From assembly GCA_016235865.1 (NCBI GenBank), contig JACRIK010000018.1, forward strand, positions 66,891-130,890: a stretch of 64,000 nt of DNA. Reading direction: 5' to 3'. Shown here one piece after another: positions 7,745 through 60,887 of this stretch. The notes under the pieces are model-generated. The model did not search any database. It saw only the letters and a program-made list of their open reading frames with translations, and had not been told where the DNA came from. The translations under genes were made by a program, and so were the position numbers. How positions within the stretch are numbered: the stretch's first letter is position 1; the number at the start of each line of letters is the position of its first letter. This DNA is from Planctomycetota bacterium. GTDB lineage: Bacteria > Planctomycetota > MHYJ01 > JACQXL01.

Positions 7745-8045
7745 TCGCGGTTTGAACGCAATTAATTACTGCGACTTATCCTGAGCAAAGCGAATGGTTA
7801 GGGCGAATTACAGCCCCTTATCCTGCATCAGCGGGGTCCCGATGCATATCGGGGTTAAGCCATTTAGAATTCTTTCAGTATAAACCCCACAAAGGGATAA
7901 ACCCTAAATTCCACCTTGGTTCCTGTCATAATCCGAGCATAATTATCATGTCTTTTTTATATAACTCATTATGCTATAGAATATTGTATAAAATATTACT
8001 CTGCAAAACTAGGGGGAGGGGGTATGGTGGGGGGTAGTACCCTTG

Positions 8046-8320
8046 GCGCTACGGAGGTACGTTATCGGCCCGACGGAGGTACGTCACCGGCACTACCGAG
8101 GTGCATTCCAGGCGCTACAGAGGCATATTCTAGGCGCTACAAAGGTATATTCCAAGCGCTACAAAGGTACATTCCAGGCGCTACAAAGGTATGCTCCAGG
8201 CGCTACGAAGGTATGCTTCTGGCGCTACGAAGGTATGCTTCTGGCGCTACAGAGGTATGCTTCCGGCACTACGGAGGTATGCTTCCGGCGCTACGGAGGC
8301 ACGTCACCGGCACTATCATC
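8046..8320. repeat. Tandem array, 22-bp unit (consensus gcgctacaaaggtatgcttccg), about 12 copies
   Basis: The period can be read directly. Units diverge at the edges. There are no spacers, so it is not CRISPR-like. Confidence 0.85.
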
Positions 8321-11999: not shown

Positions 12000-12017
12000 A
12001 AAGAGGAGAGATGATAG

Positions 12018-12935
12018 ATGACAGATGAAAGTAAATTTCCAAAATGGCCGTTGTATGTGACCGTAGGTGTCGGATTGATTATTGCCTTGTATTATTCCTT
12101 CGGGATGCTCATGGCGGTAACCAGCAAGCATCGGGCCAAAGAGGCCGGACCATACAAAGTGGAATTCTCGGAACGGGGCGAGCGGATGCTGGGTGTCCCG
12201 TGCCGGCTGATGCTCCAGGTGGTTTCCGAGGCGAAACCGAAATCTATTAACCTGGCGTATTACACCTTGAATCGTGAAGAAGCCGGCCCGGCCATGATTT
12301 ATCACAAGATCCCCATGACAAAGACGTTTGAGTCCAGGCCGATGATTCAGGCCGGCAACAGCGGGCTTTATTCGGTGATTCTGCCGCCGCTGAAGGAGAT
12401 GGCCGCGCAGTACTTTTATTATTTTGTCCTGACTGACGAATCCGGCAAGGCCTACGATTTCAATCCGGCCGGAGATGCCAAGAATCCAGAGCCCGGCTGT
12501 ATTACCTACCGCGGCGAAGGCACGCACTGGGTGACGGTGCTGCATATCGCGCTGATGATTCTGGTGGTATTCTTTATGCTCCACGTAGTTTATTCTTCAT
12601 TAGCGCACATTGCCCGGAGCGACTACCCGATAGGCCGGGCGGTTCACGCCGGCTGGTGGGCCAATATATTCTTCTTCCTGACCAGTTTCCCCATCGGGCT
12701 GTATGTCTCCGGAGTGGCTTATGGCCGGCCCTGGACCGGCGTGCCGCAGGTATGGGCCTGGAACGACGCCGATAACAAGAGTTTGGCTATTTTTATCTAC
12801 TGGGTGGTTATCCTGTTCCTTATTTGGGGCGTGAGCAAGGGTAAGAATAAAATCAGCCCGAAGGCGTATGCCTGGCTGAGTTTACTCGGCGCCATCGCGA
12901 CTATATATTTGTTTCTGTCCGGTGGGCACAACTAA
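12018..12935 (+). CDS. Membrane protein, paralog B of the preceding gene
   Basis: SD AAGAGGAG. Shares motifs WTGVPQVWAWNDADNKSL and SPKAYAWLSLLGAIATI with A. Confidence 0.55.
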   Translation: MTDESKFPKWPLYVTVGVGLIIALYYSFGMLMAVTSKHRAKEAGPYKVEFSERGERMLGVPCRLMLQVVSEAKPKSINLAYYTLNREEAGPAMIYHKIPMTKTFESRPMIQAGNSGLYSVILPPLKEMAAQYFYYFVLTDESGKAYDFNPAGDAKNPEPGCITYRGEGTHWVTVLHIALMILVVFFMLHVVYSSLAHIARSDYPIGRAVHAGWWANIFFFLTSFPIGLYVSGVAYGRPWTGVPQVWAWNDADNKSLAIFIYWVVILFLIWGVSKGKNKISPKAYAWLSLLGAIATIYLFLSGGHN

Positions 12936-12989
12936 CTCAAAAGATGAGAGATGATAGAAAAAAGATGATAGATAGGAGAGGTTAGAGAT

Positions 12990-19271: not shown

Positions 19272-19322
19272 GTGAGTAAAGAGATGACAGATGAAAGATT
19301 AAAGATGATGAGTAAACCGCCT

Positions 19323-26958: not shown

Positions 26959-27129
26959 TATGTTCTACAATAACCTCATTTCTTTTCCTACAGTATGGCA
27001 AATTTCCAGCACCTTGTCAAGTTCCTGGTCGGTGAGTGTTGCCATATAACCCCGCTCCGATGTTTATCGGGCGGGATAACTCGCTGTAACGCCCTGGCGC
27101 CTACAGCGCCATGACTAACAGCGAGAAAT

Positions 27130-28363: not shown

Positions 28364-28409
28364 TAATCTGCGTAATCTGTGTAATCTGTGTAATCTGTGT
28401 AATCTGTGG
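28364..28409. repeat. 5 tandem copies of 9-mer TAATCTG(C/T)G, ending AATCTGTGG. They abut the kinase stop and lie upstream of kbl.
   Basis: Direct reading. The same terminal motif occurs at 40571-40588 and 56484-56511. Confidence 0.8.
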
Positions 28410-29297: not shown

Positions 29298-29466
29298 AAT
29301 CTGAAGAATTTCAAAGATAACAACTAGATTAAATAACCCCCTTTTATTCCCCCTTTGTTAAGGGGGACTGCGGGGGTTGTTATTCCGTTAAATCCTGTTG
29401 TTTAATTTCTCAATTATTAGGATTATATTTCTTGCCTGGGTGAATTCAATATATAATAATATAAAT

Positions 29467-31188
29467 ATGAGTGCCTTAAAGACGAAGAAACCGTTTGGCG
29501 AGATCGTCATCGAGATGAAACTGGCGACCGCGGCGCAGATTAAAGAGGCGCTGGCCGCCCAGAAGGCCCTGGCTACCGGTGCCAAGCCGGTCAAAAAGAA
29601 AACCGGCGAGATTCTGGTCGAGAAAAATATCCTTTCCGCCTCCCAGGTTACGGCCATCCTGGCCAAACAGGCCAACCTTAAATTCGTCCGGATTTCCTCC
29701 GGCACGATTACCGATGAGATAATTAAACTGGTGCCCAAGAGCCTGGCCCTGGAACACAAGATTATGCCGCTCCAGAAAAAAGGCAAGGTCCTGACCGTGG
29801 CCGCATCTTCGCCGCCGGATATGTTCGCCCTGGATAATCTCCGCTTCGCCCTGAACAGCGATATCGAAGTGGTCCTGACGGCGCAGGATGAACTGAACCA
29901 GGCCATCGCCAAATATTACGGCTCGACGATTGACGACTACGGCAACCTGGTCGGCGATATCAGCGACATCGACATCGCCCAGCGCGACGGCAAGGAAGAG
30001 GAAGCGGTTGAGGATGATGCGCCGATTATCAGGCTGGTTCACACCATTATTTCCGACTCGGTCAAGGTCCGGGCCAGCGATATTCATATCGAACCCATGG
30101 AAAAGGCGTTGCGCATCCGCTACCGGATTGACGGCGTCTGCCGCGAGATAGAATCACCGCCCAAACGGCTCCAGGGACCGGTCCTTTCCCGTATCAAACT
30201 TATGGCCGGGATGGACATTGCCGAAAAACGCCGGCCCCTGGACGGCCGGATTGCCACCTCTATTGACGGCAAGGATTTTGATATCCGCGTTTCGTCACTG
30301 CCTTCACAATACGGCGAGAGTATCGTCATGCGGCTGCTGGAAAAGCAATCGTTGGCCAGTTTGGATGACCTGGGATTCCACGGCGAGGACTACCGCCGAT
30401 TCAGGTCCATCATCAAAAGACCACACGGCATCTTCCTGGTTACCGGCCCGACCGGCTCAGGCAAGACCACCACCCTCTATGCGGCCATCAAGGAACTCAA
30501 CAAGCCCAATGTCAAGATTATCACAGCCGAAGACCCGGTGGAGTACGTAATGAGCGGAGTCAACCAGTGTCCGGCCAAGCGTGAAATCGGATTTACCTTT
30601 GCTTCTATCATACGAGCGATGTTAAGACAGGCGCCGCAGATTATTCTGGTCGGCGAAATCCGCGATGCCGAGACCGCCACCATAGCCACCCAGGCGGCCC
30701 TGACCGGCCACCTGGTCTTCAGCACCCTTCATACTAACGATGCGCCGTCCGCACTGACGCGTCTTTTGGATATGGGCGTAAAACCATTTCTGGTCGCGGC
30801 CTCTATCCAGGCCATTATGGCCCAACGCCTCATCAGGATACTCTGCCCCAAATGCAAACAGCCTTATACGCCGGAAGAGCCGGAACTGGCCATGCTCGGC
30901 CTGACGCAGAAAGACATCGAAGGCAAGACCATCTACAAGGCGGTCGGCTGCAAGGACTGCAAAGAGGGCTACAAAGGCCGGCGCGGCATCTTTGAACTCC
31001 TGGAAATGAGCTCCACCCTGAAAGAAATGACCTTCCGCAAGGAGCCGACCGTGAAACTCTACGAAGAAGCCAAAATCAGCGGCAAGATGACCTCGCTCAT
31101 GGAAGACGGCGTAAGAAAGATTCTGGACGGGCTGACCACACTGGAAGAGGTTGTGTCGCTGGCCAAGCGGGAGGATATCGGGTACTAA
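29467..31188 (+). CDS. pilB: Type IV pilus / T2SS assembly ATPase (PilB/GspE/MshE family) with two MshEN-like N-terminal motifs. The ORF track gives start 29398.
   Basis: Walker A GPTGSGKTTT, Asp box, Walker B ILVGEIRD, His box, tetracysteine CPKC...CKDC. N-terminal GEIVIEMKLATAAQIKEALAAQ and GEILVEKNILSASQVTAILAKQ. Confidence 0.8.
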   Translation: MSALKTKKPFGEIVIEMKLATAAQIKEALAAQKALATGAKPVKKKTGEILVEKNILSASQVTAILAKQANLKFVRISSGTITDEIIKLVPKSLALEHKIMPLQKKGKVLTVAASSPPDMFALDNLRFALNSDIEVVLTAQDELNQAIAKYYGSTIDDYGNLVGDISDIDIAQRDGKEEEAVEDDAPIIRLVHTIISDSVKVRASDIHIEPMEKALRIRYRIDGVCREIESPPKRLQGPVLSRIKLMAGMDIAEKRRPLDGRIATSIDGKDFDIRVSSLPSQYGESIVMRLLEKQSLASLDDLGFHGEDYRRFRSIIKRPHGIFLVTGPTGSGKTTTLYAAIKELNKPNVKIITAEDPVEYVMSGVNQCPAKREIGFTFASIIRAMLRQAPQIILVGEIRDAETATIATQAALTGHLVFSTLHTNDAPSALTRLLDMGVKPFLVAASIQAIMAQRLIRILCPKCKQPYTPEEPELAMLGLTQKDIEGKTIYKAVGCKDCKEGYKGRRGIFELLEMSSTLKEMTFRKEPTVKLYEEAKISGKMTSLMEDGVRKILDGLTTLEEVVSLAKREDIGY

Positions 31189-31325
31189 AAGAGGTTACAT
31201 AAGGTTACAACCGGTTACAAGGGGTTACACATTCGCTTTGCTCAGTGCAAGCAAAAGGTTACAGTAACCTCTTGTAACATCAATGTAACATCTTGTAACT
31301 TCTTGTAACATTTAGGAGGAACAGC
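31189..31325. repeat. Palindromic GTTACA-array element, copy 1 (5x ggttaca, then core gcactgagcaaagcgaatgtgtaacc in reverse, then 5x tgtaac), between pilB and pilT
   Basis: The 34-bp core is identical, in inverted orientation, to 35947-35980. Confidence 0.75.
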
Positions 31326-32423
31326 ATGGCCGTAGATTTAAATAAATTACTTGATGTAGTGGTTGACCAGGGCGCGTCGGACCTGCACCTGACGGTCGGC
31401 CTGCCCCCGATGATTCGGGTGCACAGCCACCTGAAACCGCTCAACCATCCGCCCCTGACCAATGACGATACCGTGGCCTTCATGCATTCGGTCACCTCGG
31501 AGCGCCACCAGCAGGAACTGAAAGAAAAGGGCGGCTGCGACCTGGCATTCGCCTACGGCACAAAGGCCCGGTTCCGCGTGGCCGTCTATACCCAGCGCGG
31601 CCAGACCGGCCTGGTCCTGCGCCTTATCCCGAACAAGTTGCGGACCATTGAGGAACTGGGCCTGCCCGATGTGATAAAGGAACTGATAAACCGGCCCCGG
31701 GGCCTGATACTGGTCACCGGCCCGACCGGCTGCGGCAAAAGCACCTCGCTGGCCGCCATGATAAATCACATTAATACCAACGACGACTGCCATATCATCA
31801 CCATTGAAGACCCGATTGAATATTACCACGAGCACAAGAAATCCATCATTACCCAGCGCGAAGTCCACAACGACGTCGGCTCGTTCTCCGAGGCCATCAG
31901 CAAGGCCTTGAGAATGGACCCGGACGTGATTCTGGTCGGCGAAATGCGCGACCTGGATACTATCGGCACCGCCATTACCGCCGCGGAAACCGGCCACCTG
32001 GTCTTCGGAACTCTGCACACTACCGGCGCGGCCCGGACCATCAACCGCATCGTGGATGCCTTCCCGAATATGCAGCAGGAACAGATTCGCACCCAGCTGG
32101 CGACCGCCATCATCGCCATCATCTCCCAGGTCTTGATGCCCAAGGCCGATGGCAAGGGTGTGGTTGCGGCCTATGAAATAATGATTGCCACGCCGGCCGT
32201 CCAGCACCTTATCCGGGAAAACGAACCGCACAAAATCATCTCGGCCATCCAGACCGGCACAAAACTGGGCATGGTTCTCTTAGACGATTACCTCTTCAAG
32301 CTGTTCCTCCAGAAGAAGATTACATATCAGGACATGATGGAATACTCCCAGAACCCGGCTGATTTGGCCATCAAGATACAGGAATACGCCAAGCAGCAGC
32401 AGGCCGCGTTTAAGAAGCAGTAA
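31326..32423 (+). CDS. pilT: Twitching-motility ATPase PilT
   Basis: GLILVTGPTGCGKSTS, VILVGEMRD, GHLVFGTLHT. Confidence 0.9.
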   Translation: MAVDLNKLLDVVVDQGASDLHLTVGLPPMIRVHSHLKPLNHPPLTNDDTVAFMHSVTSERHQQELKEKGGCDLAFAYGTKARFRVAVYTQRGQTGLVLRLIPNKLRTIEELGLPDVIKELINRPRGLILVTGPTGCGKSTSLAAMINHINTNDDCHIITIEDPIEYYHEHKKSIITQREVHNDVGSFSEAISKALRMDPDVILVGEMRDLDTIGTAITAAETGHLVFGTLHTTGAARTINRIVDAFPNMQQEQIRTQLATAIIAIISQVLMPKADGKGVVAAYEIMIATPAVQHLIRENEPHKIISAIQTGTKLGMVLLDDYLFKLFLQKKITYQDMMEYSQNPADLAIKIQEYAKQQQAAFKKQ

Positions 32424-33350: not shown

Positions 33351-33730
33351 GGGGGGATACCCCCATATATCCGGGGGGATATCCCCAGGGTATCTAATAG
33401 ATACCCCCTACACTACCAGTAGATACCCCCCTACCTACTACTGGATACCCCGGTACCTACTAATAGATACCCCCATACCTACTGACGGATATCCCCCTAC
33501 CTACTAATGGATACCCCCGTACCTACTGATAGATATACCCCTACCTACCAATGGATACCCCCTATAGTAGTAACGGATATACCCCTGCCTACTGACGGAT
33601 ACCCCCGGTAGTAGTAACGGATACCCCCCGACCTAGCAGTGGATACCCCCATACCTACTGATGGATATACCCCTACCTACTATGGGATACCCCCTGAGGT
33701 AGTAGTGGATACCCACCTACCTGCTACCTG
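33351..33730. repeat. Tandem array, about 22-bp unit GGATACCCCCNTACCTACTRAY, about 17 copies. Some units carry the inverted core ggtagtagta.
   Basis: Direct reading. Units are contiguous with no unique spacers. Confidence 0.85.
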
Positions 33731-33785: not shown

Positions 33786-34010
33786 TAATAACTCTTGGCG
33801 CTGCTTATATACTGTGCATTTTGGTAAGTTTACAAGCGGGGATGTTTGTTTTGATGAGAAATGCCGCTTGTTTGTTAATCAGATGCCACTTCTTTTTCAA
33901 TCAAATACCGGCTCTTATATACTGTGCATTTTGGCAAGTTGACAAGCGGCGCTGGCTGTCTTGATTAGAAATGCCGTCTGTTCGTAGTAAAAATGGCGCT
34001 TCATTTGGTT
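33786..34010. repeat. Two direct copies (about 85% identical) of a roughly 75-bp segment cttatatactgtgcattttggYaagttKacaagcgg...gaaatgccg
   Basis: Direct reading. The listed ORF 33743..33964 spans the repeats and is probably spurious. Confidence 0.7.
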
Positions 34011-34146: not shown

Positions 34147-34243
34147 CCCGACAAAAACTGTCGGGATAAGGGTCTCTAATTCACTAAGTTCACTCCGCTC
34201 CGGTAGGTGCTCGTGGTCACGCTGCGCTTAGTTCAAAGAGTCC

Positions 34244-34254
<11 letters not shown>
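34147..34254 (+). repeat. Structured REP-like element copy C2: hairpin cccgacAAAAActgtcggg, ATAA, a long insert, then CTAACCTAACC. It overlaps the hutU stop codon.
   Basis: Hairpin and ATAA are identical to C3. CTAAC at 34244-34248 contains the reverse-strand TAG of hutU. Confidence 0.55.
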
Positions 34255-35890
<1,636 letters not shown>

Positions 35891-36063
35891 ATAATATGAT
35901 GTTACAGGATGTTACATCGCCTTCGGGCGAGGTTACATGAGGTTGCGGTAACTTTTTGCTTGCACTGAGCAAAGCGAATGTGTAACCTCTTGTAACTTTT
36001 TGCCCCTCTGGGGTTCTCGTCCCGAGACCCCCGACGGGGTCGAGGGATAACCCCTTGTAACGG
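35891..36063. repeat. Palindromic GTTACA-array element, copy 2 (core tgcttgcactgagcaaagcgaatgtgtaacc), between hutH and hutU
   Basis: Shares the 34-bp core, in inverted orientation, with 31226-31262. A partial core (ctgagcaaagcgaatg) is also at 7783-7798. Confidence 0.75.
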
Positions 36064-37587
36064 TTATTTTAACTTTCCCACTACCTTTTCCACGGCTTCG
36101 AGTATCTCGCCGGATTTCACCAGCGCTTTCATGGCGTTGTGGTCGTCGAACAGCGGCCGGTCCACTTCCAGGTGCGCCACGTGTTTGCGGATGATTTCCC
36201 GGGCCTTGAGCGAGCCCTTGCCGGGCGTGAATTCTCTGAAATCCAGGGCCTGGGCCGCGGCCATTAATTCGATGCCGATGACGCCGTAGGCATTATCAAG
36301 AATCTGGGTGTTTTTCAGGGCGGTGTTCATGCCCATTGATACAAAATCCTCCTGGTCAGCCGCGGCCGGGATGGACATAATGGATGCCGGGGCGCTCAGG
36401 ATACGCTGCTCGACGATGAGCGAGTCGGCGGTGTATTGCGAGAGCATCAGGCCTGAATAAAATCCCGGTTCGTGGGCCAGGAAGTCGGGCAGTCCCTGGC
36501 TCAGGGCCGGGTTGGTCAGCCGGTTTAAGCGGCGCTCGGAGATGACGCAGACCATGGTGACAGCCGCGCCGGCCATATCCATGGGTAGCGCCACCGGCGA
36601 GCCCTGGAAGTTGGCGCCGGTCAGGGTCAGTTTCAGTTCCGGAACGAATATCGGGTTGTCGCCCACGCCGTTGAGTTCTATTTCGACCTGGGAGCGGGCG
36701 TAGGCAATGGCGTCGCGGGCCGCGCCGCTGACCTGCGGGGTGGAGCGCATCGAGTAGGCGTCCTGGACCTTGGTTTTCATCTTGCCGGTGGTCAGGTCCG
36801 AGCCCTCGAACATACGGCGCATGTTATCGGCCGAGTCAACCGCGCCTTTGAATCCGCGCAGTTCGTGGAGTTTGCCGGTGTAGGGTTTCATGTTGCCCAG
36901 GAGCGCCTCGATGGTCATGGCAGCGGCGATTTCAGACTGCTTGATTAGACGTTCCATGTCGAAGATGTTCAGGGCCGAGATGGCGGTCAGCAGGTTAGAG
37001 CCGTTGATGGCGGCCAGGCCGTCCCGGGCCTGCAGTCCGGGAATCGGGATGCCGGCCTTTTCCATGGCCGTCTTGCCCGGTAATATTTCGCCTTTATAAA
37101 ATGCCTTGCCTTCACCCATGAGCAGCAGAGCTGCCTGGGCCATCGGGGCCAGGTCGCCGGATGCGCCGACCGAGCCCTTGGCGCAAACGACCGGGGTGAC
37201 GCCCTTATTGAGCATGGCCACCATGGTTAGCGTAATCTCGGGACGGCAGCCGGAGTTGCCGTGGGCGTGGACGTTGATGCGCCCGGCCAGCGCCGCCCGG
37301 ACGTGTTCGATGGGCGCCGGCTCGCCGATGCCGGCCGCGTGGTTGTAAACCAGATAACGCTGGAATTCCTTGACCTGTTCGTCGTTGAGCATCTTCTCGG
37401 AGAATTCGCCGATGCCGGTGTTGGTGCCGTACATGACCTCTTTTTTGGCGAGTTTGTCTTCGAGCATGGCCCGGCAGACCTTGATACGCTCCAGGGCAAC
37501 GGGCGCCAGTTCCACTTTCTCATTGTGCCGGGCTATCTTGACCAGGTCTTCAATGGTTAAATGAGAGCCGTCTAATACAACTGCCAT
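36064..37587 (-). CDS. hutH: Histidine ammonia-lyase
   Basis: MIO-forming SVGASGDL motif and full-length HAL similarity. Confidence 0.9.
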   Translation of the reverse strand: MAVVLDGSHLTIEDLVKIARHNEKVELAPVALERIKVCRAMLEDKLAKKEVMYGTNTGIGEFSEKMLNDEQVKEFQRYLVYNHAAGIGEPAPIEHVRAALAGRINVHAHGNSGCRPEITLTMVAMLNKGVTPVVCAKGSVGASGDLAPMAQAALLLMGEGKAFYKGEILPGKTAMEKAGIPIPGLQARDGLAAINGSNLLTAISALNIFDMERLIKQSEIAAAMTIEALLGNMKPYTGKLHELRGFKGAVDSADNMRRMFEGSDLTTGKMKTKVQDAYSMRSTPQVSGAARDAIAYARSQVEIELNGVGDNPIFVPELKLTLTGANFQGSPVALPMDMAGAAVTMVCVISERRLNRLTNPALSQGLPDFLAHEPGFYSGLMLSQYTADSLIVEQRILSAPASIMSIPAAADQEDFVSMGMNTALKNTQILDNAYGVIGIELMAAAQALDFREFTPGKGSLKAREIIRKHVAHLEVDRPLFDDHNAMKALVKSGEILEAVEKVVGKLK

Positions 37588-37596
37588 CTGGTGCTC

Positions 37597-37640
37597 ACTT
37601 TCTTAGAGCCAGTTATCCCGACAGGGAGTTACTGGGTCTT
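37597..37640 (-). repeat. REP-like element copy C4 (minus orientation: ccctgtcgggATAActggctct), immediately upstream of the hutH start
   Basis: The tcgggataactggct string is shared with C1. Confidence 0.45.
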
Positions 37641-37665
37641 AGATGGCGCCACTGGCGCCATTCAT

Positions 37666-37695
37666 TATCACGGTTTACCCCCACACCAATACTTT
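37666..37695. repeat. Perfect 13-bp-stem hairpin acccccacaccaa-tact-ttggtgtgggggt. The cacaccaat/attggtgtg motif recurs at 58716-58760.
   Basis: Direct reading. Confidence 0.7.
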
Positions 37696-37894
37696 GGTGT
37701 GGGGGTTACCAAGAGGGTCGTTAATATACCTGTGATAAATAAACTAATCAAGAAAAATAGAGAGAAAATAATGGCCGGGCAGTGACAAGCGGATAAAATA
37801 AATATTTTACTTGACATTTTCGTGTAATAGGGATATATTAAATTATATTAAATATCAAAACCGAGAAGAGATACCCCGCCATGCGGCGGGGTCT

Positions 37895-37978
37895 CCCGAT
37901 GAGTAATCGGGATAAGTCGCTGTCCCTAACGGGACTCCTGTGGTCGTAACGACCAAAGGTCTAACAGCGACTAATAAG
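37895..37978 (+). repeat. Structured REP-like element copy C5: hairpin cccgatGAGTAatcggg, ATAA, stem gtcgctgt...CTAAC...agcgac, TAATAAG. It sits in the 5' leader of the OMP gene.
   Basis: Same architecture as C1 and C3 with a different but self-complementary outer stem. Flanked by GC hairpins ccccgccatgcggcgggg and gcggcgctaaggcgccgc. Confidence 0.6.
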
Positions 37979-38042
37979 AGTCTGTAACGTCGTGCGGCGC
38001 TAAGGCGCCGCCCAACTAACAGTCTCTAAGAGGAGCAAAAAG

Positions 38043-39506: not shown

Positions 39507-39566
39507 ATAAATATTATTAAACAACCCCGTACCTACCTAAAGGATGGGTGCGGGGTTGTTCTATTT

Positions 39567-39924: not shown

Positions 39925-39997
39925 CCCGACAAAAACTGTCGGGATAAGAACCAGTAAGTCCCCCGAAGGCTTTCGGGGTCCTAACTGGTTCTAATGG
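39925..39997 (+). repeat. Structured REP-like element copy C3: hairpin cccgacAAAAActgtcggg, ATAA, stem gaaccagt...(inner hairpin cccccgaaggctttcggggt)...CTAAC...tggttc, TAATGG. It abuts the nrdR stop codon.
   Basis: Direct reading. The outer stem is compensatory relative to C1 and C5. Confidence 0.6.
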
Positions 39998-40447: not shown

Positions 40448-40570
40448 AACAATTAAGTAAACGGATTAAGCGGATTAAACGGATGTTTTGATTAACACGC
40501 TTTAACCATTTTCACGACTTATAGCAGAAACCCGGATAAATTTCAACTAATTATATTGATAAATTAATAA

Positions 40571-40588
40571 AATCTGTGTAATCTGTGG
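40571..40588. repeat. 2x 9-mer AATCTGTG(T/G) directly upstream of the acs start. An ACGGATTAAGCGGATTAAACGGAT 9-bp-periodic array lies at 40462-40486.
   Basis: Direct reading. Shared with 28364-28409 and 56449-56511. Confidence 0.75.
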
Positions 40589-43187: not shown

Positions 43188-45140
43188 ATGAAAAATATAT
43201 TAGTTTATTCTTTGGCGCTGTTGATTGTTTTGGCGGCGGCACTGCGGGGCGGGGCGGAAAATAAAGACGGGCGGGCAGCCGAGTTAATCAAGCGCCTGGA
43301 TTCCGAAAAGGAATCATTACGGAGTTCCGCGGCCTATGCCCTGGGCGAGATGGGCGCCAAAGAGGCCATTCTGGAATTAAAACGGCTCCTGATAGACAAG
43401 GAATGGACCGTGCGCCAAGCCGCGGTTGATGCCTTGAGAAAACTTGAAGCAAATGACCTGGCCGCCGATATAATGCGGCTGTTAAAAGATAAAAGCAGCG
43501 ATGTGCGCGAGTCAGCGGTGGTGGCGATGGGCGAATTCCGCGCCCGAGAGTCGGTGCCCGCGCTGGTAAAAATCATCAACGATGACGATGATGACATGGT
43601 GCGCACAGCGGCCATTTATGCGCTGGGTAAAATGGGCGATAAGGGTGCTATCTCTGATTTGACAGCGCTGGTGAAGAAGAATAACTGGGGTATCCGAGTT
43701 TCGGCGGTTTTGGCGCTGGCCGAACTTGATGCGAAGGAATCAATTCCTGATTTGGTAAAAATGCTCAGCGATACGGACAAGGCAATTTGCAGTTATGCGG
43801 CGTGTACTCTGGGTTTGCTTGGAGCCAGGGATGAAATGTTGCGTATTAAAGAGGCTGCCAAGGATAAGGATAAGTCCCTGGCGCAGTCAGCGGCTTATGC
43901 CTTGATGGAACTCGGCGACAAAGAGTCGATTTCTCTGATGATAAAAGAGGATAGCTGGCGGAATTACGAATTAGTTAAAGATGCGATTGAAAGAGTTGAC
44001 CCCAAAGAGTCGATTCCTGAATTAGTAAAATTACTGGGAAGCAAGCAGGAGCTAATCCGCGGCTATGCGGCTCTTTTCCTAGGAGAGCTGGGCGCCAAAG
44101 AAACAATACCGGAACTGACTAAATTGCTTAAGGATAACGAAAAATATCCGCGTTCGACCGCGGCTATTGCGCTAGCAAAATTAGGACACCGTGAAGTCAT
44201 TCCGGAACTGGTCAAATTACTCAAACACAAAGACAGGGATCTGAATGTTTCGGCGGCCGTAGCGCTTGGAGAGCTTGACGCCAAGGAGGCCATACCTGAC
44301 TTAAAGAAGATGCTGAAAGATAATGATGCCTATGTCCGCGGCTGGGTTATTTACCTGCTCGGACGGCTGTGCGGCAGCGAAATGGTTCCGGATCTCAAAA
44401 AATGGCTGAATAAAGAAACCGGCTATGTCCGCGGCGTAGTTGTTTCCACTCTGGCTGAGCTTGATGTGAAAGAATCGGCGCCTGATATAATTAAATTATT
44501 AAACGACAAGGATCCCGGGGTTTCCCAGAGAGCTGTTTATGCATTGGGCAAATTAGGAGCTAAAGAATCGATTCCTGAATTGATGAAACAATTCAGTGTG
44601 GTTACGATGACCCAGGCGGTTATTATTACCCTGGGGGATTTTGGTGTTAAGGAGATAATTCCGGATTTAAAGAGGATGTTGAAAGAAGGCGATGATAACG
44701 AACTGCGCCAGGCCGCGTCATATGCGCTCGGTGAAATGGGGGTAAAAGAGGTTACTCCTGAATTGATGAGATTACTCAAGGACGATAAGTGGTTGGTGCG
44801 CCGGCTGGTTATAAATTCACTGGGCGGGGCCGGTAACCGTATGCCTTTTGAAGAATCGGTCAGGGCGGTCAGAACGCAGGTTTATGAAGTCCGTAAATCC
44901 GCGGCATATGCCCTGGCAAGATTGGGCGACAAGGAGGCCGTGCCGGAATTAATGAAACTTCTTAGATGTGGCAATAAAGAAACCCGCGGCTGGGCGGCGA
45001 TTGCCTTAATTGAGTTGGGCGAGAAGGACAAGGTGCCAATGGATGTAATCAAGGATATAAAGGCCCTTAGTGGTATGACCAATGCTGACATGAAACGGGC
45101 CATAAAAGCCCTGAAAGAATTAAGTGTAGCCAAGGATTAA
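43188..45140 (+). CDS. Secreted HEAT-repeat (PBS-lyase type) protein, about 20 repeats
   Basis: Signal peptide. The iterated unit is A..ALGELGAKEAIPELVKLLKD. Confidence 0.7.
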   Translation: MKNILVYSLALLIVLAAALRGGAENKDGRAAELIKRLDSEKESLRSSAAYALGEMGAKEAILELKRLLIDKEWTVRQAAVDALRKLEANDLAADIMRLLKDKSSDVRESAVVAMGEFRARESVPALVKIINDDDDDMVRTAAIYALGKMGDKGAISDLTALVKKNNWGIRVSAVLALAELDAKESIPDLVKMLSDTDKAICSYAACTLGLLGARDEMLRIKEAAKDKDKSLAQSAAYALMELGDKESISLMIKEDSWRNYELVKDAIERVDPKESIPELVKLLGSKQELIRGYAALFLGELGAKETIPELTKLLKDNEKYPRSTAAIALAKLGHREVIPELVKLLKHKDRDLNVSAAVALGELDAKEAIPDLKKMLKDNDAYVRGWVIYLLGRLCGSEMVPDLKKWLNKETGYVRGVVVSTLAELDVKESAPDIIKLLNDKDPGVSQRAVYALGKLGAKESIPELMKQFSVVTMTQAVIITLGDFGVKEIIPDLKRMLKEGDDNELRQAASYALGEMGVKEVTPELMRLLKDDKWLVRRLVINSLGGAGNRMPFEESVRAVRTQVYEVRKSAAYALARLGDKEAVPELMKLLRCGNKETRGWAAIALIELGEKDKVPMDVIKDIKALSGMTNADMKRAIKALKELSVAKD

Positions 45141-53737: not shown

Positions 53738-53833
53738 ATCCCTGCTCCTTTCGTTAGAGTCCGTTGGACCCCGAAAGCATTCGGGGAACTTACGGACTCT
53801 TACGTCCCGCCGTATGGCGGGACATCTTGATTA

Positions 53834-54679
53834 TTATTTATTATTTCCTCCTGCCTTTGGCGGAGGGTTAGTTTTGTTTGGTTGGTGCCTTTTCTGGCCT
53901 TGCTTGGGAGCGCTATTATTATCGCCGCCTTGCTTGTTGTTATCCGGTCTCTTGGCATTATCAGGGTTTTTCTTTCTTTGTTCATCGCAGAGCTTCTTCA
54001 GCTGTTCCCGTCTCTGTTCGGGCGGAAGCTTCTTGAGTTCCTCAACCTTATCCGGTCCCAGTTTCTTCTTGAGGTCTTCCTCCAGTAGTTTCTTGATTTC
54101 CTTACGGCGTTCCTCGGGCGGAAGGTTCTTCAGCTCTTTCCTCTTTTCCTCGGGCAGTTGCTTGACCGCATCGATGGTATGCTGGACCATTTGGCGTTTG
54201 GCCGGGGTCATGTTCTGGATTTTGTGCATCAGTTCCTTGCGTTTTTCCGGGTCCATATTCTGGAGCCGTTCCTTAAGCGCCTGGCGTTTCTCCGGCGGCA
54301 TCTGCTGGAGTTGCTTATGGGCCTGCTGGAGACGTTCCTTTTCCTCCGGGGTCATCTTCTGGAACTTTCTGAAGGCCGCCTTGGTTTTCTCCTTCTGCTC
54401 CGGAGACATCTTCTGCCACTGTTCCTTCCGGCGTTCCATCATCATCTTGCGGAAACGAGGTTTTTCATCGGATGATTTACCGTTGTCTTTATTATCCGTT
54501 TTATCTTTGGCGTTGTCGTCTTTGGTATTATCCTGAGAAACGGACGGCGTATTATTTCCCTGATCCTTAGCCGGCTGGTTATTCTCTTGTGCAGAAGAAA
54601 TCAAAGCGCTTGCTGTAAAGAGTAGCGCCGCACACGCCATCATCAATAATCCGTGCAATCTGAGGAATCTGTGTTTCAT
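53834..54679 (-). CDS. Periplasmic LTXXQ-motif (Spy/CpxP/ZraP-like) repeat protein
   Basis: Signal peptide. About 8 repeats of [LM][STP]PE[QEK] (MSPEQ, MTPEE, MPPEK, MDPEK, LPPEQ...). Confidence 0.5.
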   Translation of the reverse strand: MKHRFLRLHGLLMMACAALLFTASALISSAQENNQPAKDQGNNTPSVSQDNTKDDNAKDKTDNKDNGKSSDEKPRFRKMMMERRKEQWQKMSPEQKEKTKAAFRKFQKMTPEEKERLQQAHKQLQQMPPEKRQALKERLQNMDPEKRKELMHKIQNMTPAKRQMVQHTIDAVKQLPEEKRKELKNLPPEERRKEIKKLLEEDLKKKLGPDKVEELKKLPPEQRREQLKKLCDEQRKKNPDNAKRPDNNKQGGDNNSAPKQGQKRHQPNKTNPPPKAGGNNK

Positions 54680-56387: not shown

Positions 56388-56483
56388 AGTTAGGAGAATT
56401 TATATTATTATAATTGATTTTACAATAATATCATGATAAGTAATTTCGTAAGCGGATTAAGCGGATTTGGCAGATTGAGCGGA

Positions 56484-56511
56484 TAATCTGCGGAATCTGT
56501 GCAATCTGTGG
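56484..56511. repeat. 3x 9-mer AATCTG(C/T)G(G/C) ending AATCTGTGG, preceded by an AAGCGGATTAAGCGGATTT array (56449-56470). Lies upstream of the aminotransferase gene.
   Basis: Direct reading. Confidence 0.75.
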
Positions 56512-56526
56512 TTAGAAAGGTATTTT

Positions 56527-58844: not shown

Positions 58845-60887
58845 ATGAAACGCCAGAAATTACTTGTAGTAACCCCGCCGAGGCGGGCGAATCTATCCGA
58901 TTATCTTAACCAAATCAAAGCAGCTCTGGACCAGCAGGACTATAACAAGGCAAAACGATTAGGTGGGATTGCATCAAAGAAACTTGCTTCTTTAGAGCAT
59001 TCTCCGCTTGAGGAATATTTATTATACAGCAGATTGGGACATTCTCATTATTTACTGGCGCAGTATTCTTTTGCTTTGGATGCTTTTTATAAAGCATTTC
59101 TGATAGCCCAAAAGAATTCTTTGCATCCGGCATACCAAAATTATATTTCAGCCCAAATGGGAGATATTCTTCGTTTAATTGGAAATATCAGCCAGGCATT
59201 ACGGCAGTTCGAAAAAGTAGGGCAGTACTACAAGCAGTATGGCGATGGTGTTTCGCCTATGAATAAGCAGTTGTATGGCGGCTATTTACTCAGCCTGGTG
59301 GGTTGTTATTTGCATCAAGGCAAACCCGATAAAGCAAAGAATATTATAACCATTAGTGAAGCAGATGATAGCTTATCACAAACCCAGATGTTTTTAATGG
59401 ATTATAATCACTTTAAAGGAGAGTATCTGATATTGGTGGAAGAATACAATGATTCCAGGGAAACGTTTCTAAAATGCATAGAAATATGTAAACAAAACAA
59501 CGACCAATGCGGTTGGTTACAAGCATCGATACACCTCGCCCAAATTGACCTTATAGAAGAAAAAATAAGTAACGCTATTAAATTATTGAACATAATTCTA
59601 AAATCTGCCCGGCAATTAAAACTTAATGACCTCATTTGTGAATCAGGACTTCTTTTGAGCAAGTGTTATTTGCTTAAAGGTCTGCCTGATAAAGCTATTG
59701 CTATGGAGCAACGGATTAAACCCATTCTCTCAAAATTAGATACGGCCTGGCTCTATGAAAAGACCCGTGAGTTTGAGAAACTCTATCGCCAGTTGTCCTC
59801 CACAGGCGGATCCCGCTTAGCGGGACAATCATCTCCAAAACCCCTGCCTGTCCCGGCTGCACCTGCGATTCTGGTCAAGACATTGAATCACCGCTACGAA
59901 ACTTCGCCGTATAAAGAGATGGTCATTGGCAGTTCCGAGTTAATGCGCGAGGTATTTCAGTTAATAGAGAAGATTGCGCCATCGGATTTGCCGATTCTAA
60001 TCCAGGGCGAAACCGGCACCGGCAAGGAACTGATTACCCGGGCGATTCACGCCAAGAGCCAACGGGCCGAAAAGGTCTTCCTAGCATTTAATTGCGGGGC
60101 GATACCGGAGTCGCTCATGGAAAGCGCGCTTTTCGGCCATACCAGAGGCGCCTTTACCGGCGCCACTGAAGACAAGAAGGGATATATTGAACTTGCCTCG
60201 GGCGGAACGCTTTTTATAGACGAGGTTGGTAATATGTCCGTTGGGATGCAGCAGAAACTCCTGCGCGTCCTGGAGGAGAATCTGGTCTGGCGTATCGGCG
60301 CGCAGAAACAGGTATCTGTTAACACTCGGTTCATCTTTGCCAGCAATCAGAATGTCGAGCAGTTAGTTCAGCGGAAACTTTTCCGCGAAGACTTGTTTTA
60401 TCGTATCAATACTATTGTGCTCAACCTACCGTCTTTGAAAGAACGCCAAGACGATATTCCGTTATTGATAGAACACTTCCTTAAGAAATATGCCACTGGA
60501 ATGCAGAATGTAGAATTGGGAGTGGGGAATGAAAAATTCCGCATTCCGGATTCCACACTCCGCATTCTGATGGACTATTCCTGGCCCGGCAATATCCGCG
60601 AACTGGAAAACGAAATTCAGAGAATCTGCGTCCTGCACCCTGAAGCAAAGATTATCACTGAGCTGATGCTTTCTGAATCAATTCGTACTTGTATGTCTAC
60701 ATCTCTATCTATAGCTAAGGATATATTGACTCTTAAAGAAATAGAACAAAATAGTATTGTGGAAGCGCTTAAAAGATGTAACGGTAATATGACTAAAACA
60801 GCCGGGCAACTTGGACTTACCCGGGCCGGTCTTTACAGAAAAATGAAACGGCTTGGAATAAAACCGTCCCTTGTTACCATATCGTAA
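58845..60887 (+). CDS. Sigma-54-dependent transcriptional activator: TPR-like N-terminal sensor domain instead of a receiver, then AAA+ and Fis-type HTH
   Basis: ILIQGETGTGKELITRAIH, GAFTGA, ESALFGH, and C-terminal MTKTAGQLGLTRAGLYRKMKRLGI. Confidence 0.85.
   Translation: MKRQKLLVVTPPRRANLSDYLNQIKAALDQQDYNKAKRLGGIASKKLASLEHSPLEEYLLYSRLGHSHYLLAQYSFALDAFYKAFLIAQKNSLHPAYQNYISAQMGDILRLIGNISQALRQFEKVGQYYKQYGDGVSPMNKQLYGGYLLSLVGCYLHQGKPDKAKNIITISEADDSLSQTQMFLMDYNHFKGEYLILVEEYNDSRETFLKCIEICKQNNDQCGWLQASIHLAQIDLIEEKISNAIKLLNIILKSARQLKLNDLICESGLLLSKCYLLKGLPDKAIAMEQRIKPILSKLDTAWLYEKTREFEKLYRQLSSTGGSRLAGQSSPKPLPVPAAPAILVKTLNHRYETSPYKEMVIGSSELMREVFQLIEKIAPSDLPILIQGETGTGKELITRAIHAKSQRAEKVFLAFNCGAIPESLMESALFGHTRGAFTGATEDKKGYIELASGGTLFIDEVGNMSVGMQQKLLRVLEENLVWRIGAQKQVSVNTRFIFASNQNVEQLVQRKLFREDLFYRINTIVLNLPSLKERQDDIPLLIEHFLKKYATGMQNVELGVGNEKFRIPDSTLRILMDYSWPGNIRELENEIQRICVLHPEAKIITELMLSESIRTCMSTSLSIAKDILTLKEIEQNSIVEALKRCNGNMTKTAGQLGLTRAGLYRKMKRLGIKPSLVTIS

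Follow-up and report, generated by a model that had tools for sequence, protein, structure and literature searches.

The spacer between pilB and pilT in the 64,000-nt stretch of Planctomycetota contig JACRIK010000018.1 analysed here (the window, with positions counted from its first letter) would hold a nested composite, in which a conserved intercistronic array of GGTTACA/TGTAACC heptads has independently received a 24-nt core, and of which a further copy, between hutH and hutU, would be a duplicate. To this reading as a whole we assign a probability of about 60%. The core is a separate 24-nt element, inserted precisely after the GTTAC of one heptad and with no target duplication, since the orthologous site is empty in two related contigs (L036 and L037, which have a 93%-identical PilT and the same SPT-kinase-pilB-pilT order as the window). 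The array into which it was inserted is orthologous in these close relatives and, judged against the neighbouring synonymous sites, under purifying selection.

The core and the array around it

The array is a palindrome of heptads with a period of 10-11 bp, or one unit to each turn of the helix, which extends from the stop codon of pilB almost to the ribosome-binding site (RBS) of pilT. The whole spacer, 31189-31325, reads aaga GGTTACA taa GGTTACA acc GGTTACA agg GGTTACA CATTCGCTTTGCTCAGTGCAAGC aaaa GGTTACAGTAACC tc TTGTAAC atcaa TGTAAC atc TTGTAAC ttc TTGTAAC attt AGGAGG aacagc ATG, and is made up of the following parts:

31193..31228, plus strand: 5′ arm, with GGTTACA at 31193, 31203, 31213 and 31223, in exact 10-bp steps
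31229..31252, plus strand: 24-nt insertion ACATTCGCTTTGCTCAGTGCAAGC, a filled site against the empty one of L036 and L037
31230-31256, plus strand: 27-mer core CATTCGCTTTGCTCAGTGCAAGCAAAA
31253..31269, plus strand: spacer AAAA and central palindrome GGTTACAGTAACC (31257-31269), identical in L036 and L037
31270..31309, plus strand: 3′ arm, with TGTAAC at 31273, 31284, 31294 and 31304, 100% identical in L036 and L037
31314..31319, plus strand: pilT RBS AGGAGG, just beyond the predicted hairpin

The fourth unit of the left arm (31223) is cut after GGTTAC by the insertion, while a further GGTTACA, starting at 31257, is the left half of the central 13-bp palindrome, which is the fifth left unit fused with the first right one. 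The five plus five units counted in an earlier reading made from the letters alone (the sequence-only reading) are obtained if both halves of this palindrome are included, there being otherwise four and four outside the centre; the unit inserted, for its part, is of 24 nt and not of 34. The array thus combines phased repeats of a possible recognition motif, with invariant heptads at 10-11 bp, as in operators or iterons, and terminal inverted repeats, in the form of inverted arrays, as in MITEs (miniature inverted-repeat transposable elements). GTTACA occurs 32 times in the window (17.3 +/- 4.7 expected), 15 of them in the two junctions.

At the point of insertion the window reads ...aggGGTTAC[24-mer]AaaaGGTTACAGTAACC, where L036 and L037, at the orthologous site without the core, read ...aggGGTTACAaaaGGTTACAGTAACC; set out by units, the relatives have ...agg GGTTACA aaa GGTTACAGTAACC tc TTGTAAC... 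and the window has ...agg GGTTAC + ACATTCGCTTTGCTCAGTGCAAGC + A aaa GGTTACAGTAACC... The excision in silico of exactly 24 nt gives back a regular 5+5 array, with an edge that is ambiguous by one A alone. The position recurs, given that in six array copies, at no fewer than four independent sites, the 24-mer always lies at GTTAC^A. A scan of metagenomes for the exact 24-mer gave 21 loci, and it is found at GTTAC^A in all the other GTTACA arrays recovered, namely L410 (a locus other than that of L036, although both come from one metagenome, between a short-chain dehydrogenase and an enoyl-CoA hydratase), L413 (two copies, on a 1467-nt contig of ERZ1292630) and L416, where a different unit carries an additional, decayed copy. 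Because the spacers and the unit positions vary among these arrays, the insertion in L413 being in the second and not the penultimate unit, they would not all be copies of one composite.

With the 24-mer removed, the spacer of the window is identical to that of L036 at 110 of 113 positions and to that of L037 at 108 of 113, whereas in the same comparison identity falls to 70-74% at the fourfold sites of pilB and pilT, and to 69-75% at the third positions of the 100 codons abutting each side. It is this identity of 96-97%, against 69-75% at the adjacent synonymous sites (binomial p ~1e-10), that argues for constraint on the array. In the heptads there are 0 changes, all the differences being located at the edges or in the spacers, which are predicted to be unpaired. 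The number of units, on the other hand, slips quickly, since the left arm, uninterrupted in both relatives, has 7 units in L036 and 5 in L037, and the two encode the same PilT protein.

The genes that flank the two junctions are:

29398-31188, plus strand: gene of a PilB/MshE-type ATPase
31326-32423, plus strand: PilT gene, with its ATG at 31326
34244-35890, minus strand: HutU gene
36064-37587, minus strand: HutH gene

The closest homologues of PilT and HutU belong to metagenome-assembled genomes (MAGs) of Planctomycetota / Candidatus Brocadiia, and HutU is 100% identical to a protein (P0121) of an NCBI Planctomycetes MAG. The other relatives compared were two contigs with a PilT 86% identical (L038, L039), one with a PilT 80% identical (L040), and five with a HutU 93-96% identical (L041-L043, L403, L404).

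The hutH-hutU copy and the segment between the copies

Outside the pilB-pilT spacer the core is found twice in the window, once within a composite and once alone:

35891..36063, minus strand: composite copy between hutH and hutU, with GTTACA units, 24-mer, degenerate centre AGTTACCGCAACC and TGTAAC units
35958..35981, minus strand: second 24-nt insertion, 24/24 identical to that of the pil copy, at GGTTAC^A
7776..7799, minus strand: diverged solo 24-mer CCATTCGCTTTGCTCAGGATAAGT, with the 16-nt conserved block intact, 38 nt past a radical-SAM/BATS (HydG-like) gene

The recurrence of the core in inverted copies, as given in the sequence-only reading, is confirmed: the 27-mer CATTCGCTTTGCTCAGTGCAAGCAAAA occurs again at 35954-35980 on the minus strand with 0 mismatches (shuffled sequences give an expectation of 0.00), and the 16-mer CTGAGCAAAGCGAATG occupies 7783-7798, beyond the gene which had been called hydG and which encodes a radical-SAM/BATS protein (HydG-like). 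As for the opposite orientation of the copies, they are indeed on opposite strands, but relative to the flanking genes both are oriented alike, with the same polarity on the coding strand, that is, upstream stop, GGTTACA arm, core, TGTAAC arm and downstream start.

The pil and hut copies have a stretch of 68 nt in common (31214-31281 and 35929-35996, 91% identity), the insertion has in both a common spacer context, GGTTAC[24-mer]Aaaa(a)GTTAC...AACCtc, and the hut copy resembles the pil copy more than it resembles any array of the relatives. Because of this similarity of the spacers, it is most likely that the hut copy arose from the pil composite by duplication within the genome. In such a process, the composite, already filled, would have been moved as a duplicate into the nearby hutH-hutU spacer, would have displaced there an array of the CACAGATTA type, such as the relatives have, and would later have gained the two GC-rich hairpin insertions that the hut copy presents (~35917-35930 and ~36000-36050).

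The two inverted copies could also be regarded as the sites at which a 4.7-kb cassette recombines and is thereby inverted or inserted, this cassette comprising pilT, a 264-aa open reading frame (ORF), tandem arrays and hutU. That the inverted 68-nt repeats enclose 4647 nt, and that pilT and hutU are not neighbours in the relatives, would be in agreement with this; even so, the proposal is very improbable, given that the adjacency of pilB with pilT and of hutH with hutU across the copies is the same in all the relatives examined, as is the outer flanking synteny on both sides, that each copy is placed within a conserved gene pair and not at the edge of a cassette, and that the break in synteny is between pilT and hutU (32.4-34.2 kb), away from the repeats. 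As the adjacencies are those of the relatives, the present arrangement is the un-inverted one, with no inversion between the copies. In addition, no recombinase-like gene is found in 31.3-35.9 kb, where the only genes are pilT, hutU and the 264-aa ORF, nor are both orientations seen among the relatives. This ORF, which had been labelled GNAT-Trx, matches no Pfam or NCBIfam family, and the inversion or insertion cassette is not supported. Of the circumstances that the sequence-only reading had named as speaking against its proposals, one, the lack of target-site duplications (TSDs), is what is found at both copies, while another, that the element be unique to these two sites, is not the case, many further sites being known.

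Other repeats accompany these copies. Tandem arrays with a 22-bp period are found at 8045-8315 (~12 units) and 33394-33726 (~15 units), as well as at 39512-39536, the first of them 250 nt from the solo 24-mer and the second within the 4.7-kb bracket; they are non-coding, or at most overlap a doubtful ORF, and their consensus units, GGCGCTACGGAGGTATGCTTCC and CTAATAGATACCCCCTACCTA, look distantly related in opposite orientation. Between the second array and hutU there are two non-coding direct repeats of 93 nt (33804-33896 and 33914-34006, 78% identity), and these could represent the duplication of a promoter or of a small RNA gene. A dispersed hairpin repeat, CCCGACAAAAACTGTCGGGATAAG (1380-1403, 34147-34170, 39925-39948 and, inverted, 37603-37624), often precedes nested hairpins built as ATAAGnnnnnnGTAA[inner hairpin]CTAACnnnnnnTAAT (26959-27129, 37588-38042, 39945-39981 / 53766-53802), and in general the intergenic DNA of this genome is crowded with nested small palindromes.

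Function and turnover of the arrays

The pil array has a predicted fold of -48.2 kcal/mol (z = -6.4) that leaves the RBS of pilT free, and neither junction contains a sigma-70-like promoter or an intrinsic terminator. GTTACA arrays, for their part, are present at no fewer than seven distinct junctions, mostly between co-directional genes, and the genes downstream of them are unrelated: pilT, hutU, a purF-like amidotransferase (L038, between Nramp and purF-like genes) and an enoyl-CoA hydratase. Most likely, the array acts as a structural intercistronic element resembling the repetitive extragenic palindromes (REPs) and the bacterial interspersed mosaic elements (BIMEs), either because the polycistronic transcript folds there into a large stem-loop or because the DNA is extruded as a hairpin, and would in this way modulate the stability or processing of the mRNA or the read-through between both genes. 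The unrelated downstream genes, and the swapping of unit families described below, are the reasons for preferring a structural element to a dedicated regulon.

The array families, despite the constraint on the pil array, differ between relatives at the same junctions. In the pilB-pilT spacer, GTTACA arrays are absent from L038-L040, where L038 and L039 have instead a TAATTGC...GCAATTG palindrome, and L040 merely a 16-nt spacer; between hutH and hutU, all five relatives have CCACAGATTA/TAATCTGTGG arrays where the window has GTTACA units. Unit number changes by slippage, and over longer times whole arrays would be replaced by others of a different family, a pattern that is seen and for which we infer the mechanism. 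The hutH-hutU arrays of the relatives enclose an insert of ~250 nt or a 54-aa PDDEXK_3 gene fragment and, since their centres hold such cargo, these CACAGATTA-type arrays act as landing pads; the cargo sites are L042 7255-7419, L403 1161-1325 and the hutH-hutU spacers of L041 and L043, at the centre of an array of the CACAGATTA type.

The CACAGATTA/TAATCTGTG and TAATTGC/GCAATTA units are other flavours of the same class of arrays in this Planctomycetota lineage. The former, whose right arm typically stops a few bases ahead of the start codon, is present in the window at these positions:

28364..28408, plus strand: TAATCTGTG x5 (CACAGATTA on the gene strand), from the stop of a Ser/Thr kinase gene to the start of an SPT-like gene
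40451..40584, plus strand: inverted arrays, (A/G)CGGATTA x3, ~75 nt, and AATCTGTG x2 abutting the ATG of an acetyl-CoA synthetase-like gene
56442..56513, plus strand: palindromic array of GCGGATTA-type and then AATCTG(C/T)G units, with a GTGGTTA end 13 nt before an ATG

At 54647-54679, an array of CACAGATTC/CAGATTG/CGGATTA overlaps the annotated first codons of the minus-strand gene 53834-54679, which probably begins instead at a downstream ATG ATG, with the array then directly upstream, as at other genes. Short heptamer arrays of AGATGA(C/T/A) and ATTCCGC in small spacers (12009-12028, 12942-12973, 19282-19308, 60536-60567) recall the heptamers of the short tandemly repeated repetitive (STRR) sequences of cyanobacteria. 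Coding repeats are also present, in a HEAT/PBS-lyase-like repeat gene (43188-45140, with a period of ~93 or 186 nt) and at 62406-63985, where a repeat with a 261-nt period runs past the end of the window.

A different function, which we hold to be unlikely, would be that of operators or iterons, in which the heptads would be the sites of a protein polymerising on one face of the helix (OmpR/PhoB-type, ribbon-helix-helix or ParR-like), with a regulon that included pilT and hutU. The phasing at 10-11 bp and the perfect 13-bp central palindrome speak for such a protein, but the number of units is free to vary, and in the other intergenic regions of the window there is no isolated palindrome resembling an operator. 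The zero substitutions in 10 heptads, in spite of ~28% synonymous divergence, would likewise agree with binding sites; nevertheless, the orthologous junctions of slightly more distant relatives carry another unit family. And although an inconsistent asymmetry between sense and antisense folding is compatible with a role as double-stranded DNA, the arrays span from stop codon to RBS between co-directional genes, without a sigma-70-like promoter, and the genes that follow them are functionally unrelated. The narrower proposal of the sequence-only reading, a regulator joining pili and histidine catabolism, is not supported in view of these same facts, to which are added the different array family at the hutH-hutU junction of the relatives and the lack of any promoter-like site.

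Single GGTTACNGTAACC operators elsewhere in the window were considered and discarded, all the other near-matches being in coding sequence. As to a link with phages, the viral contigs are uninformative: arrays of GGTTACA x3 occur there at no fewer than 119 loci, but the control heptamers GTGTCAA and GATGCTA, matched to it in composition, also give at least 119 each. In those contigs (IMG/VR, L044-L363) tandem arrays with a period of 9-12 bp are very common for any heptamer tested; many of the GGTTACA matches are collagen-like GYT coding repeats, while many non-coding clusters of direct and inverted GGTTACA/TGTAACC look like phage iterons or operators.

Finally, the whole structure of 137-173 bp could be a single MITE or foldback-type transposon, with heptads as terminal inverted repeats and the core as its interior, that had transposed into both junctions. 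Dispersed copies with presence/absence polymorphism do exist, as would be expected of a MITE: the 68 nt shared by the window copies, the GTTACA arrays at the unrelated junctions of L038, L410, L413 and L416, their absence from the pilB-pilT spacer of L038-L040 and the other family at the hutH-hutU junction of the relatives can all be read in this way, as can L413, in which two inverted copies flank a two-gene cassette. We nonetheless consider it quite unlikely, because there are arrays without the core at the orthologous site, and cores without arrays in other phyla; because the position of the core differs among arrays; because the pil array keeps its position and has changed far less than neutral sites; and because no TSD and no matching transposase is seen. 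In particular, no TSD surrounds the whole element (flanks aaga...attt in the pil copy and aataacc...atcatatt in the hut copy), the empty orthologous sites being too diverged for an exact boundary, and no transposase adjoins any array in the loci examined. Of the MITE-like mobile element of the sequence-only reading, the mobility is therefore retained for the 24-nt core, with its empty site in L036 and L037, and not for the array, which is conserved in its place under purifying selection. The arrays of L413 (190-345 and 1280-1400) are near-identical, each with a 24-mer, and the genes between them (83 aa and 150 aa) have no Pfam match; their arrangement looks like that of a composite transposon or a cassette.

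The 24-mer across phyla and its comparison with known systems

The pattern CATTCGCTTTGCTCAGNNNAAG was found at 35 genome loci, against ~4 expected from an estimate based on database size. Approximately 28 of the 35 are non-coding, and often multi-copy, while ~7 are coding coincidences, such as the IRFAQEK motif of Peribacillus dehydrogenases. The non-coding loci belong to Chloroflexi/Chloroflexia, Dehalococcoidia, cyanobacteria, Planctomycetota, Nitrospirae, Dadabacteria, Cloacimonetes and the unclassified genome L015, and the family extends to eight or more bacterial phyla or candidate phyla, that of the window included, in loci whose GC content is from 34 to 59%:

One groundwater Chloroflexi MAG: at least 14 copies
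Richelia, Rivularia and Plectonema: 7 copies
Two Planctomycetota MAGs: 2 copies
One Chloroflexia contig: 3 copies
Dadabacteria, Nitrospirae, Cloacimonetes and Dehalococcoidia: present

In the cyanobacteria the insert is ACATTCGCTTTGCTCAGTACAAGC, in register within arrays of TTTTAGA/TTTTGGA heptamers, which hold the 24-mer with 1-3 changes. Its removal restores the register of the heptamers, both in these arrays (L002, L020, L024, L030-L032) and in one of TTTTGCC (L421), and in L020 two copies are separated by exactly one heptamer. Other 24-mers are found between the arms of small palindromes or within dispersed repeats of the form GTCATTGCGAG...GAAGCAATCTC (L418, L419, L420, L424, L425). In a set of 16 variants the last third changes, whereas positions 2, 4-9 and 12-16 never do (C.TTCGCT..GCTCA), within a conserved block of 15-16 nt, and the family can be searched for as CATTCGCTT(T/C)GCTCAG or CATTCGCTTYGCTCAG. 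The insertion is 3′ of TTAC in eight cases (the two of the window, L410, the two of L413, L416, L407 and L412), and in other lineages the preceding bases are different (GGAC, TGAC, AGAT and others). What is conserved in the 24-mer seems to be the recognition of a sequence and not a structure. A 2-bp covariation flanking the 16-mer (CA/TG, TA/TA, CC/GG) was considered and rejected, as it fails in several lineages and in part consists of target bases.

No family for array or core was found in Rfam, searched with the whole window at the gathering threshold and with the junction and five related loci at permissive E-values. A literature search by the sequence of the 24-mer returned no match, and one by keywords led only to the context of REPs and of the REP doublets forming hairpins (REPINs). 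In viral contigs there were 0 matches to the 24-mer core, and in a BLAST search of plasmids with its cyanobacterial version just one 19-nt match, at chance level; nor was a sigma-54 or sigma-70 promoter found within the core, by eye and by scan. A possible relationship is with the widespread dispersed repeats GTCATTCTGAGC(A/G)AAGCGAAGAATC and GTCATTCC..GCAGGAATC (L043 5654-5680, L410 ~2760-2880 in reverse complement, L418, L425, L026, L009), which have a block of 14 nt, CTGAGCRAAGCGAA, in common with the 24-mer in reverse complement and which in L418 and L425 contain the 24-mer itself, so that both may form one superfamily; the GC(A/G)AAGC centre of these repeats resembles the stable d(GCGAAGC) mini-hairpin.

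As the 24-mer is too small to encode anything, it would have to be moved in trans. This could occur by single-strand cut-and-paste, or copying, by an enzyme of the HUH/Y1 type or a similar one, acting on DNA exposed in slipped or hairpin structures; alternatively, it could have an RNA intermediate, as Elhai reportedly proposed for the small dispersed repeats (SDRs) of cyanobacteria. The single-strand mechanism is favoured, with low confidence, because of the lack of TSDs, the conservation of a block in preference to a stable hairpin, the insertion 3′ of a motif and the preference for DNA able to become single-stranded. Taken together, and as a tentative proposal to which we give slightly less than even odds, the 24-mer would be an ultra-small element spreading across phyla, with an invariant recognition block of ~15 nt and TSD-free insertion into tandem repeats and palindromes, moved by a widespread trans-acting enzyme or an RNA mechanism, while the heptad palindromes of Planctomycetota would be intercistronic control elements of a class that is under selection and whose members can replace one another.

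Several observations weigh against the nested composite as interpreted here: (i) instead of an insertion in the window, a precise deletion in the relatives is open to consideration, although this also implies mobility; (ii) the arrays with a core could in part descend from one composite that spread; (iii) the 24-mer has a weak internal hairpin (-3.2 kcal/mol, z about -1), its variants do not show compensatory covariation, and 15/45 of its insertion points are located in hairpin loops predicted for the flanks, against 50/261 displaced controls, which is a modest excess among instances that are not independent; (iv) no transposase like that of IS200 or of the REPs was found by tblastn in the window and ~60 loci (~0.4 Mb), with sequences of IS608 TnpA and of the E. 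coli REP-associated tyrosine transposase (RAYT) as approximate queries; (v) the sense strand folds better than the antisense strand in 6/9 arrays and worse in 3/9; and (vi) a DNA-binding protein would explain the conservation of the heptads and their 10-bp phasing equally well. With regard to (v), the advantage of the sense strand is due to G.U mismatches and is strongest in L410 (-26 vs -13 kcal/mol); with such mixed results, the comparison does not discriminate between RNA and DNA.

If the 24-mer is truly mobile across phyla, it would count as one of the smallest known mobile DNAs, with a host range far broader than that of the cyanobacterial SDRs, and it would offer a searchable handle for the machinery that moves very small repeats, a question that, to our knowledge, has been open since SDRs and REPs were described. 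Together with this cross-phylum spread, the point of note is the selection on a palindrome of phased heptads: an intergenic tandem-repeat palindrome that is near-invariant against ~28% synonymous divergence, yet swapped for another family in the next clade, points to an intercistronic control element of a structural kind in Planctomycetota, a group in which, as far as we know, the regulation of genes is little characterised. At a practical level, nested repeats of this type break assemblies and spawn spurious ORFs, and they should not be taken as regulons.

In relation to known systems, the composite shares with MITEs and Foldback elements, the latter eukaryotic and with short tandem repeats making up their terminal inverted repeats, the inverted arms of short tandem units, a centre that can hold cargo, and dispersed copies with presence/absence differences; it differs from them in having neither TSD nor cognate transposase, and in the pil copy, which is positionally conserved and under purifying selection. 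IS200/IS605 elements resemble the 24-mer in their strand-specific insertion without target duplication, directly 3′ of a short motif, as occurs with the TTAC of the eight cases above, and IS608 inserts 3′ of TTAC; unlike these elements, 24 nt are too short for two subterminal hairpins, there is only one weak hairpin, and no TnpA was found.

The REP, BIME and REPIN sequences are short extragenic palindromes located between co-transcribed genes (PMC3116915; PMC3733652). A role as RNA stem-loops has been proposed for them, as has mobilisation in trans, on single-stranded DNA, by an HUH tyrosine transposase, the RAYT (PMC3116915; PMC3733652); by definition they are palindromes of 20-40 nt of which one end bears the conserved tetranucleotide GTAG or CGTC as a tag, and some are inserted within “target palindromes” of the host (PMC3733652). 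The extragenic palindromic repeat between genes, and the insertion within a palindrome of the host, are common to REP/BIME and to the composite. The differences are that neither the 24-mer nor the heptads have the GTAG/CGTC tag, that the arms of the array are phased tandem heptads where a REP has a single stem, that a REP family is for the most part limited to one species or common to a few related ones, while the 24-mer is near-invariant across phyla, and that no RAYT was found by the tblastn search described in (iv).

The closest known description of the 24-mer would be that of the SDRs, which Elhai and colleagues are said to have reported in 2008 as SDR1-8, of 21-27 nt and embedded in tandem heptamers, in Nostoc punctiforme and its relatives. 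With these, compared by description, the 24-mer has in common its length of 24 nt, within the range of 21-27 nt, its dispersed, multi-copy and non-coding nature, the evidence of recent mobility, its embedding in tandem heptamers and the presence of nested or adjacent insertions (L020, L416). The SDRs, which are those of heterocystous cyanobacteria, are reportedly confined in essence to one cyanobacterial subgroup, and SDR4-6 are said to share a hairpin; the 24-mer, by contrast, is also present in Planctomycetota, Chloroflexota, Nitrospirota, Dadabacteria, Cloacimonadota and others, and a hairpin feature like that of SDR4-6 is unsupported for it. In summary, the composite can be classed as a mini-element of the SDR/REP kind, nested within an intercistronic repeat that resembles a foldback element.

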